A DNA stretch of 64,000 nt from Candidatus Melainabacteria bacterium 17Bon1m (GTDB lineage Bacteria; Cyanobacteriota; Vampirovibrionia; Obscuribacterales; Obscuribacteraceae): positions 449,008-513,007 of the forward strand of contig JAVLKG010000003.1 of the NCBI GenBank assembly GCA_032128875.1, given 5' to 3'. Position 1 is the first letter of the stretch, and each line of letters begins with the position of its first letter. Of the stretch, positions 10,030-13,045 are shown in pieces. Position numbers and translations under genes: made by a program. The notes beneath the pieces were generated by a model that made no database searches, was not told the DNA's origin, and was given only the letters and a program-made list of their open reading frames with translations.

Positions 10030-10755
10030 CTATATAAGTTCGCGGCGTGAGCGCTCTTGAACTTTAGTGTTCGTGCAAAGAGAGAGGATTTTGTCGACAA
10101 CTTCGGCAATAGACATTCCGTCGGTGACAATTTCGTGGGCGTCGAGTGCTTTCTTGAGTGGCGCAATTTCTCTTGTGGAATCACGCTTATCGCGCTCGAT
10201 CATTTCCTGAAGGACAGTATCGTATGCGACACTTTCGCCGCGCGCTTCAAATTCGCGCATCCTGCGTTTGGCTCTTTCGGCGGCGGACGCTGTCAGGAAA
10301 ATTTTGACCTCGGCGTTCGGAAGCACCACTGTGCCTATGTCCCGCCCGTCCAGCACAACGCCACCATTTTGTGCCAGTCGTCTTTGCTGCGCTACCAGCG
10401 AGTCTCTGACGGGTCCTATTGTTGAAATCGGGCTGACCATAAGGCTCACCTCACGAGAGCGAATCTCGTAAGTAATATCTTCTTCGTCCAGGAAGACCTT
10501 CAGAAGCGGCGTGCCATCTGCATTCGTCGAGGGCACAAGATCGATTTTTGCTTGAGCCACTGCTTGCGCTATTTCTTCAGGCTCTTCCATGCTCAACCCT
10601 TTTCGCAAGGCCAGCACTGTTGCGGCTCGGTACATTGCGCCGGTGTCTAAATACAAATAGCCGAGTTTTTTCGCCGCCAGCTTGGCGACGGTGGATTTGC
10701 CGGCGCCTGCCGGACCATCAATAGCTACTTTCAACGCCTGCGCGGTCTCAATCAT
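10030..10755 (-). CDS. cmk: Cytidylate kinase
   Basis: AIDGPAGAGKST, YLDTGAMYRA, VLDGRDIGTVVLP and ERDKRDSTR..APL. Confidence 0.97.
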   Translation of the reverse strand: MIETAQALKVAIDGPAGAGKSTVAKLAAKKLGYLYLDTGAMYRAATVLALRKGLSMEEPEEIAQAVAQAKIDLVPSTNADGTPLLKVFLDEEDITYEIRSREVSLMVSPISTIGPVRDSLVAQQRRLAQNGGVVLDGRDIGTVVLPNAEVKIFLTASAAERAKRRMREFEARGESVAYDTVLQEMIERDKRDSTREIAPLKKALDAHEIVTDGMSIAEVVDKILSLCTNTKVQERSRRELI

Positions 10756-10767
10756 GTGTGGAGAATA

Positions 10768-11523
10768 TCACTTGATGAAATAAAGCGCGACTCCAATTGC
10801 AACGACCACAAGCGCAAGTATGGCTGCCGCAATAATCGTCATTTGTGAATTGGCTTCTTCCGGTTTGTCTTTGGAGAGGTATTCGGATTGTCTGAGTGCC
10901 GGCGAGCCAGTCAATGTTTTCCTGGGATTGCGGCTCTGTACGGCATTTTGTACATCTTCTGCGCTGACCACGCCGGGCGGATAAGATTCGTTGTCGATGA
11001 GCGGTTGCATGAGTGCCCATGCCGCTTTGTCCGGAATTTTGTGGGTGCCGGAGAGAACCATTGGTGGAGGAATCGGCTCTTCTTCGTCTTCGTCTTGCAA
11101 TGCAGGCAATTCACCCAGTGTGAAGTCCTGCCCGAAGACCTTGTCCAGAAGCGCTCTTTCGTCAAAGAGCTTAGCCGGAGAGTCAGGAAGGTGTGGCATC
11201 GTCTTCACAAGCTGATCGATTTCAATATGAAGATTGGGCTGCAATTCAATGGAATCGCCTGGCTTTGCATTGAGCAGGGCGAAGTTTCCCTCGTCTATCG
11301 AAAGCAGTAGCCTGAGTGCGGAGTAGCCTGTTTCAAAACTGTCGATGACTGAAGCAGCTGTCACGTATTTGCCGCCGTCTATTGCAATTTTGCCGTTCAA
11401 TCCGTCGCGTTGCCTGTTGATTCGCAAGATCTTGAGACCTGGCGCAGGAAGCGCTTTTATGCGCAGCAAAACATCCTTCATCGCAACCTGATCTGACAAT
11501 CGACCTTCGAATATCAGATCCAC
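10768..11523 (-). CDS. DUF4388/PATAN-like N-terminal domain protein with C-terminal TM anchor
   Basis: N-terminal pattern FEGRLS...DVL...LRI...GKIAIDGG...TGYSALRLLLSIDEGNF; acidic/Pro linker; C-terminal hydrophobic helix. Confidence 0.65.
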   Translation of the reverse strand: MDLIFEGRLSDQVAMKDVLLRIKALPAPGLKILRINRQRDGLNGKIAIDGGKYVTAASVIDSFETGYSALRLLLSIDEGNFALLNAKPGDSIELQPNLHIEIDQLVKTMPHLPDSPAKLFDERALLDKVFGQDFTLGELPALQDEDEEEPIPPPMVLSGTHKIPDKAAWALMQPLIDNESYPPGVVSAEDVQNAVQSRNPRKTLTGSPALRQSEYLSKDKPEEANSQMTIIAAAILALVVVAIGVALYFIK

Positions 11524-11588
11524 GACGATGCCATCCTTCTATCTGTCCTCAGCGCATCTAGCGCTTTATTTTGTGCTGGCGATTTGTC

Positions 11589-11930
11589 TTATTGGGTTTT
11601 TGGCTCTTTGCGGGTCAAGAAACCTTTTAGCCATTCTGCAAAGGAGATTCCTTTGGCAGATGAAGCTGCGGTCTGCTGTGCCTCGGAAAGGGATGAACCA
11701 TTGGCGACCAGATGAATGATTTTCGCTACTTCATCGTCTTCTGGAAATCGACCAAGTTTGCTCTTGGAATAAATGAGCACACCCTTGTCTTCAATTTCGA
11801 ATACGCCGCCGCTTGATTTAACAAGCTCTGATTCTTCGGAAAATTGACTTTCTAATTCCGCTGCCAACCTGACAGCTCTAGCTTGATAGCCTCAAGCTCC
11901 ACAGTAAGTGATCTTGAATCTCTTTGCCAT
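11589..11930 (-). CDS. SelW/SelT/SelH (Rdx family) selenoprotein, 113 aa, Sec at codon 13
   Basis: AGGAGG RBS then ATG 11930; reads MAKRFKITYCGA-U(TGA 11894-11892)-GYQARAVRLAAEL...SSGGVFEI...LIYSK...GRFP. CxxU, GxFEI and GRFP are Rdx hallmarks; a SECIS-like hairpin follows the UGA. Confidence 0.92.
11860..11876 (-). promoter_or_regulatory. Bacterial SECIS-like stem-loop
   Basis: GCUGUCA-GGU-UGGCAGC begins 15 nt after the UGA; G-containing apical loop resembling the CAGGU apex of the E. coli fdhF SECIS. Confidence 0.7.
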
Positions 11931-12054
11931 AAACCCTCCTTGATTCCAGTTGTGTCTGTTCGGACACCATCATGTTATCTTACCGCCCTTGAAACGGACG
12001 TGTAAGAAAAGCCATCTAACAGTTGAAGACTATGCTGTTTGAAACTGGTTCCAA

Positions 12055-12849
12055 CTATGGAAAGCGGCGGAACAAGCGTTTCCACCAAGGCAAACTCAAA
12101 TACGCCTCGTACTGCTGTTTGAAGGCGACCATCTCGCGTTGAGCGCTGATCAGCTCATCCTTGAGCATTTGATTGTTGTGCTGGTTGGTTTCAAGCAGGC
12201 GCATCGAATTAGTCATTTCGTTGAGCATGCGGAGGTCTTCAACGTGCTGGCGCGTCTCATCTGCGAGGGCTTTGTGCACTTTGACCAGCTCTTTGAGCAA
12301 TTGCTCGACTTCCTCGGAGCGGTCGATAATGATGGTTTGATTCTCGAGCCCGTCTTCTGAGGGCTTCACCACAAATGCTTCTTTCGGCTTGCTGTTAGGC
12401 AGAGCAAGATTCAACGCTTCTTCCAGTAAATTTGGTATCAAGTCGTCACCTTCTGTTTCTCTTGCCTGTTCTTCGTCTTTCGAGCGATGTCTGACCTTAA
12501 AACTGTCGGGCGGTATAACCCGCCACTCATCATTGCCGTCGATGCGTATTTTCTTTGCTATCCAGCCATCCGGGAGCTTGTTGCCCCAGCGACCCAGGAT
12601 GCTGCGTTCGAGTGCTCGCACGGAGCGTCCTAAAAGTGAAGAGGCTTCTTTGATGGTGAGCGCCGGGCGTGCCAGCTCTTCTTCCGTCATTAAGTCAGAA
12701 ATTGATTCCGAGTCACCGTATACTTCGCATTCATCGAATTCATCGCATGCCTTAGCTTCTTCTGATCGCGTCTCAGGCTCGCTTTTCAGATTGATTTCCT
12801 GTTCGATTTCCGCGGGTGCTTTTGTTTCCAGCTCGGTAGTTTCGACCAT
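12055..12849 (-). CDS. HTH (MerR/Xis-like) plus coiled-coil protein with a WWKRLF tail
   Basis: LTIKEASSLLGRSVRALER HTH-like motif; C-terminal coiled coil; amphipathic LPWWKRLFRRFP; GAGGG RBS before ATG 12849 (ORF open from 12861). Confidence 0.7.
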   Translation of the reverse strand: MVETTELETKAPAEIEQEINLKSEPETRSEEAKACDEFDECEVYGDSESISDLMTEEELARPALTIKEASSLLGRSVRALERSILGRWGNKLPDGWIAKKIRIDGNDEWRVIPPDSFKVRHRSKDEEQARETEGDDLIPNLLEEALNLALPNSKPKEAFVVKPSEDGLENQTIIIDRSEEVEQLLKELVKVHKALADETRQHVEDLRMLNEMTNSMRLLETNQHNNQMLKDELISAQREMVAFKQQYEAYLSLPWWKRLFRRFP

Positions 12850-13045
12850 CTTCGCCCTCAAATCTTCTCAACAGCAAGTTTTGCCGCATTTCGCCTTGAA
12901 TTCGAAATGCAAGTTGCCGGACCTTATTTTAGCCCCTTTGTCATGAGGAGCGGCTCTCTATGAAGCGCATCTGTATAGAAAGTTTCTCATGAGAAAACCT
13001 GCAAGAGCCCACGGCTTTGGCAATTGTGCTTCCCGCGGGAGGCGT

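Follow-up and report, generated by a model that had tools for sequence, protein, structure and literature searches.

Does the short minus-strand frame at 11589-11930 encode a selenoprotein whose active site is lost in annotation, or is it a gene disabled by a stop codon near its start? The window, by which we mean the whole stretch of DNA analysed here, is 64,000 nt of contig JAVLKG010000003.1 (positions 449,008 to 513,007) from assembly GCA_032128875.1 of Candidatus Melainabacteria bacterium 17Bon1m. A sequence-only reading had proposed that the frame is a SelW/Rdx gene starting upstream of its annotated start, that an in-frame TGA occupies the last position of its redox motif, that a stem-loop lies 15 nt past this TGA, and that the organism decodes selenocysteine (Sec). 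On the evidence below, we are highly confident that this is a real selenoprotein gene in which UGA codon 13 is decoded as Sec through a downstream SECIS.

The list of open reading frames made with table 11 starts SelW at a TTG (11867-11865), which gives a product of 92 aa. The proposed upstream start held up when we examined it. An ATG stands at 11930-11928, it is the first start codon downstream of the upstream in-frame stop, and AGGAGG, which we read from the sequence as a Shine-Dalgarno element, lies 4 nt before it at 11940-11935. Among genus-level orthologues GGAGG is retained (their upstream translations read ..QGGFMA..). From the ATG the frame reads MAKRFKITYCGA (12 codons), a TGA as codon 13 (11894-11892), and GYQARAVRLAAEL..., with 100 codons after the TGA before the stop, TAA, at 11591-11589. 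Translated with TGA as U, the full gene (11589-11930, minus strand) has 113 codons plus the TAA, and the TGA is indeed the last position of the motif, C10-G-A-U13.

A scan of 11300-12300 found no sigma-70-type promoter. The neighbours are also on the minus strand: a 268-aa protein upstream (12055-12861) and a 251-aa protein with a hydrophobic C-terminus downstream (10768-11523), neither of which matches a Pfam family, and beyond these a cytidylate kinase gene (10030-10755; PF02224, 243.9 bits). In at least three other genomes a neighbour also adjoins SelW, the upstream one at loci L037 and L047 and the downstream one at L039. The upstream neighbour has a conserved terminal motif, ...PWWKR.F.

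The assignment to the Rdx/SelW family is clear from the profiles. The 113-aa protein, with TGA read as U, scores 68.8 bits against Pfam Rdx (PF10262; cut-off 22.6) over residues 6-72 and 58.8 bits against NCBIfam TIGR02174, CXXU_selWTH (cut-off 34.2). The top-scoring NCBIfam model is NF041051, SelTWH_Campy, which is matched at residues 6-72 over nearly the whole profile; the score of 82.9 bits is below the equivalog cut-off of 88, so SelW falls outside that equivalog. In the orthologue alignment C10 of the N-terminal CxxU motif is invariant and position 13 is nearly invariant, and in the GGxFE[IV] segment (GGVFEIE at residues 41-47) F44 is invariant and G42, E45 and E47 are nearly so. The Rdx domain, placed by Pfam, NCBIfam and structure-profile matches, occupies 11715-11915 on the minus strand. 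It is followed by a C-terminal extension of about 40 aa (..SFAEWLKGFL.., 11592-11714, minus strand) that is peculiar to a long form of the protein and is missing from the 74-76-aa short forms and from homologues of the Desulfomonilaceae type. The short forms also occur in the window's own family (f1), and among the families searched with the SelW query the long-tailed form was found only there.

A profile of the family matches eight solved Rdx-type chains, which include 2p0g, Atu0228 (2fa8), a chain titled 'SelT/selW/selH selenoprotein domain' (2obk), mouse selenoprotein W (2npb) and MIEN1 (2ljk). From these profile matches, the fold is expected to be thioredoxin-like, and membership in the family suggests a redox role, most likely that of a thiol-dependent oxidoreductase. 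The matches to mammalian selenoprotein W (E 8.9e-6) and MIEN1/C17orf37 (E 2.7e-11) cover the Rdx core and align the CxxC/U position; the partners reported for those proteins need not hold for the bacterial one. In eukaryotes SelW depends on a SECIS in the 3'-UTR and on other factors, unlike the bacterial arrangement. With bacterial SelW-like selenoproteins (TIGR02174/PF10262) our protein shares the N-terminal CxxU, the GGxFE segment and a SECIS directly 3' of the UGA within the coding sequence; it differs from them in the extra C-terminal tail of about 40 residues and in its host, a non-photosynthetic branch of the cyanobacterial phylum. SelW-like proteins are listed as a bacterial selenoprotein family in the available part of Zhang et al. 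2006 (PMC1794560). The protein is an additional member of this already known selenoprotein family.

These profile matches bear on another account of the locus, in which the true product is the annotated 92-aa protein from TTG 11867 and the upstream ATG and TGA are irrelevant. Gene callers give that form almost throughout the public databases: there are 32 SelW relatives in the protein database, most of them in the truncated form, at 91-96 aa and 81% coverage of the query (some carry JGI names such as 'selT/selW/selH-like putative selenoprotein' or 'predicted Rdx family selenoprotein'). However, a protein starting at this TTG would have neither the first strand nor the CxxU centre, even though the Rdx profile match begins at residue 6. 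The 12 codons upstream of the TGA show conservation at the protein level and are preceded by an AGGAGG of their own, forms with Cys at the motif position read straight through, and the TTG itself falls within a conserved hairpin (described below). We consider it very unlikely that the 92-aa protein is the true product.

We next consider how the UGA codon behaves in relatives. We searched 61 genomes, including the window's own, with the SelW protein, reading through stops and counting them. Matches were found in 30 of the 61, all in f1 (29 of the 36 other f1 genomes, versus none of the 24 genomes from eight other families). The 38 match rows comprise 30 with one TGA, 6 with no TGA and 2 with extra stops. 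We fetched 30 loci, of which 26 close the TYCxx- motif with TGA and three with TGC (CTSC, CTEC and CHSC); the remaining one has lost this codon (CANS). A wider scan of genome contigs gave 80 named loci, in which the codon is TGA in 63, TGT in eight and TGC in seven, with two loci missed by the motif pattern; a Cys codon is therefore found at the motif position in 15 of the 80. These genomes are kin and are not independent samples.

The TGA could in principle be a nonsense allele or a sequencing error that inactivates a former Cys-type Rdx gene. The Cys forms in related genomes fit this account, and another Sec gene in the same genome, encoding MsrA, is in fact interrupted. Against it stands the recurrence of TGA at the same codon in most of the named and fetched loci. 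Conservation of the peptide 5' of the TGA (RFKITYCGA) persists to identities as low as about 45%, which is not expected if it were untranslated. Codon 11892-11894 is also covered by contigs from four public runs (two RNA libraries and two DNA runs from other studies), and none has another letter there. Nearby differences, at 11844, 11901, 11907 and 11916, are all synonymous third-position changes, and one relative has an in-frame 3-nt deletion 5' of the TGA in the public-run contigs. The RNA-library data that span SelW are contigs only, and one of them is 17.7 kb long and possibly reflects DNA carry-over, so they do not establish transcription. The homologues carry either Sec or Cys at position 13, and we saw no independent inactivating lesions in relatives but a conserved upstream peptide instead. 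We regard the chance that this is a pseudogene or a sequencing error as close to negligible.

The third element is the hairpin. The stem-loop that had been proposed is where it was said to be: GCUGUCA-GGU-UGGCAGC at 11876-11860 on the minus strand, with 7 bp and an apical GGU loop at 11869-11867. The spacing from the A of the UGA to the first base of the hairpin is exactly 15 nt. On its own the sequence has only a slight folding advantage over chance (z = -1.97; 9 of 200 shuffles did as well or better), and we take the hairpin to be beyond chance because of comparative evidence and not because of this fold. Across the 26 Sec forms it is the sole structure that RNAalifold predicts. Of its cells, 92.3% are paired; shifting the 3' partners by 1-3 columns lowers this to 15.9-58.2%. 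The covariation score of 0.195 (versus 0.118 +/- 0.016) was reached by none of 500 shuffles. In one pair the third positions of two Ala codons face each other, as UA in 15 sequences, CG in 4, UG in 3, AU in 1 and GC in 1, with no pairing in 2. Five of the seven pairs barely vary because the encoded peptide is conserved. Within the stem, the Val and Leu codons have third positions (third-codon positions 36 and 42) that are the same in 26 of 26 sequences, compared with an entropy of 0.5-2.0 bits at other third positions.

The hairpin also follows the UGA across the 80 named loci. All seven pairs are kept in 38 of the 63 TGA forms, six in 22 and five in three, so that 60 of 63 TGA forms keep at least six pairs; none of the 15 Cys forms does, as these have 2-5 pairs. 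Among the fetched loci, the Cys form CHSC at L048 (genome G036) has a partial hairpin that still folds at the old SECIS place. We found no Rfam family for the hairpin: the only match within 11750-12000 is to an unrelated family (E 1.6), and the missing match is no argument against a bacterial SECIS. Another hairpin (AGCUUGA/UCAAGCU) takes in the UGA. Only 62.1% of its cells are paired and its distribution is limited to the genus, and we rejected it as a conserved element.

In the E. coli fdhF type of SECIS, the hairpin lies directly 3' of the UGA in the open reading frame, with its loop usually about 20-25 nt from the UGA. Our hairpin shares this position and has G and U in a small apical loop, and it differs in having no bulged base in the stem and a loop of 3 nt; that SelB binds it is a prediction.

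A recoded UGA requires a genome that can decode it. The window's genome totals 7.55 Mb over 35 contigs, at 93% completeness. All four components that would be looked for, selA, selB, selC and selD, are present above curated cut-offs. The selA gene (contig C10, 157642-159087; profile match) scores 496.8 bits. The full-length selB (contig C3, 941733-943661; profile match) scores 285.8 bits over model positions 3-579 of 581, with the C-terminal part included. The selD gene scores 370.2 bits and has no in-frame stop, and tRNA-Sec scores 67.5 bits and is called by ARAGORN as tRNA-SeC with anticodon TCA. Adjoining selA there is also a second SelB-like frame of 406 aa (contig C10, 154225-155121, minus strand; 198.6 bits, below the cut-off). 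It matches selB positions 1-277 only and so is without the SECIS-binding C-terminal part.

The machinery and the TGA form of SelW go together among relatives. Among the genomes covered by both our SelW search and our selA survey, selA was found in 12 of the 13 with TGA-form SelW (the exception is 82% complete) and in none of the four that have no TGA form (91-96% complete). Since these genomes are kin, we treat this co-occurrence as a pattern and not as a statistical test. Two of the four have no SelW at all, and the others are G036, with the Cys form CHSC, and G029 (locus L052), with CANS, in which the second redox residue is lost.

It is also conceivable that the whole genome reads UGA as Trp or Gly, or that the codon is read through with an amino acid other than Sec, for example Cys. 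Codes with such reassignments exist in other bacteria, and Cys insertion at UGA through the Sec pathway under selenium scarcity is known from other systems. But TGA is an ordinary stop in this genome, terminating 510 of 2120 long ORFs, and six SelW orthologues end on it as well. The complete Sec machinery and the retention of the hairpin in TGA forms only also argue against a reassigned codon. We give these possibilities, taken together, only a slight chance.

With decoding as Sec as the preferred reading, the gene would be expressed as follows. Ribosomes would start at ATG 11930 and, at the UGA, the hairpin 15 nt further on would recruit SelB bound to Sec-tRNA(Sec). Selenocysteine would be inserted at codon 13, and translation would run on to the TAA at 11589. 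In the finished protein, the C10-x-x-U13 centre would alternate between selenolate/thiol and selenenylsulfide states, with thiols or disulfides as substrates. We infer the contact between SelB and the SECIS, and the presence of selenium at position 13, from the established bacterial mechanism. The earlier proposal that this organism decodes Sec is thus supported by the machinery, the conserved UGA and the SECIS, from which incorporation at this site would follow.

If the genome decodes Sec, SelW need not be the only gene that uses it. We scanned the window's genome for frames that continue through a TGA. The first thresholds gave 71 candidates, 11 of them with a hairpin, and missed SelW, our positive control. 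Once the thresholds had been relaxed far enough to recover SelW, there were 657 candidates, of which 167 have a hairpin. A single gene thus set the thresholds of the scan, which is not exhaustive. From this list we picked candidates by eye and examined seven further, of which two were unsupported. The first (contig C7, 72071-74041) looks like two adjacent genes, with DAGK and acyltransferase domains on either side of the TGA, and the second (contig C18, 73197-74105) has no family match. We also searched the window's genome for an FdhA-type selenoprotein; nothing exceeded the cut-off, and none of the matches contained a TGA.

Judged from their sequences, there appear to be at least five further UGA-Sec genes in the genome. 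In these, a hairpin of 7-9 bp with a G/U-rich loop starts 20-28 nt after the U of the UGA. One encodes a Sec-type MsrA with the motif G-U-FWG (contig C1, 605104-605580), which matches PMSR at 104.4 bits with the U inside the match. Among relatives a TGA occurs in 13 of 71 MsrA match rows, beside the usual Cys forms. This is the interrupted gene mentioned above: a perfect tandem duplication of 46 nt (L137, 950-995 and 996-1041) disrupts the reading frame, which stays open for 196 aa in the closest relative. The duplication could be a recent mutation or an assembly artefact.

Two more are paralogues of an unnamed secreted family, 431 aa (contig C11, 87512-88807; L140) and 356 aa (contig C4, 97536-98606; L139), with the motif ...HMLGxIDGxT-U-SAxNSLRA... 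and a 6-bp hairpin, GAGAGC-loop-GCUCUC, after the UGA. Neither Pfam nor NCBIfam has a match to this family. In a search of 41 genomes it was found in 20 of 24 from f1 and 3 of 3 from family f2, with 2-4 copies per genome. There is one TGA in 52 of the 57 match rows, and the other five do not cover the site. The database holds 201 relatives. Among the 120 listed, all are unnamed or 'hypothetical protein', have no Pfam domain and are truncated calls, with query coverage of 80% or less. The family may represent selenoproteins that have yet to be described. The remaining two are also predicted to be secreted and are weakly thioredoxin-like. One, of 371 aa (GIW-U-PGK; contig C6, 339794-340909; L138), has a weak Thioredoxin_7 match (20.8 bits, below the cut-off), and a TGA is present in its own copy and in eight relatives. 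The other, of 447 aa (RFC-U-TNA; contig C6, 272795-274138; L141), is a candidate Sec gene with weak matches of DsbH type and VPGUxxT type.

We then asked how far the trait extends beyond this genome. The sequence-only reading had guessed a Vampirovibrionia host, and the closest relatives of SelW fit this. Among the 57 nearest named loci, the record titles of 40 read Candidatus Melainabacteria, Obscuribacterales, Obscuribacteraceae or Obscuribacter, and the best match is 99% identical. The other labels are 'cyanobacteria' (six), 'bacterium' (five) and six that are discordant (Planktothrix, Oculatellaceae, Proteobacteria, Bryobacterales, Chloroflexota and Flavobacterium). In the remaining 23 named loci, 19 are labelled Desulfomonilaceae, Desulfomonile, Syntrophaceae or deltaproteobacteria and are Sec forms of 76-79 aa. 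These forms, from metagenome-assembled genomes, are the nearest relatives outside the lineage, and they have the hairpin at the same place.

In a sample of 201 genomes from the class, selA was above the cut-off in 44, including 39 of 47 in f1, 2 of 2 in f2 and 2 of 2 in a further family, f3. It was found in none of the 149 sampled genomes of eight families, which are mostly of 1.6-3 Mb. In a sample of 401 genomes from the phylum, selA was found in 24, one of them the window's own genome. Outside the class it was found in five families (7 of 8, 4 of 6, 7 of 8, 4 of 10 and 1 of 1 genomes, or 23 of 33). A photosystem reaction-centre gene (Photo_RC, PF00124) is present in 164 of the 401 genomes and in none of the 33 from these five families, and selA was found in none of the 177 phylum-sample genomes from families that hold Photo_RC. 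The reading had also assumed that oxygenic Cyanobacteria generally lack the Sec trait. This count agrees with that premise, as does the accessible portion of Zhang et al. 2006 (PMC1794560), which is consistent with no Sec trait in oxygenic cyanobacteria and does not decide between loss and a lack of sequenced examples.

Our broadest reading is a tentative one, to which we give somewhat less than even weight. It holds that the branches of the cyanobacterial phylum that do not photosynthesise decode Sec as a standing trait, namely the window's family and order, one more family of the class, and five families outside the class. Neither the oxygenic lineage nor the small-genome, gut-type families would have it. 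The lineage studied here would have a private selenoproteome, made up of the long-tailed SelW and the unnamed secreted family in which every site-covering copy has the UGA.

In the part of Peng et al. 2016 (PMC5029168) that is available, Cyanobacteria are mentioned for orphan SelD only. A 2022 proteome survey (PMC9529120), in its accessible content, has one 'Candidatus melainabacteria' GenBank protein with Sec and no other cyanobacterial proteome. BSepDB 2026 (PMC13326102) analysed 64,762 genomes and has at least 18 Vampirovibrionia rows in its genome list; the terms Cyanobacteri-, Melainabacteria, SelW and Rdx are absent from its main text. The Sec trait of the lineage may already be recorded in the per-genome results on the BSepDB website. 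Our full-text literature searches found no paper on selenocysteine or selenoproteins in Melainabacteria, Vampirovibrionia, Obscuribacter, Sericytochromatia or Cyanobacteriota. Sec is under-reported for this lineage.

For this organism and its relatives, the result is that UGA is decoded in two ways, as stop and as Sec, and that public annotation misses the second. Most SelW copies in the databases are truncated, with the active site missing. Genomes of this group require selenoprotein-aware annotation, given that one pass through a single genome yielded at least five additional candidate UGA-Sec genes. The surprise is the host lineage and its other Sec genes rather than SelW itself. In the samples we searched, the Sec trait lies inside the cyanobacterial phylum in non-photosynthetic branches only, and this contrast within one phylum offers a concrete comparison for why oxygenic cyanobacteria manage without selenoproteins.
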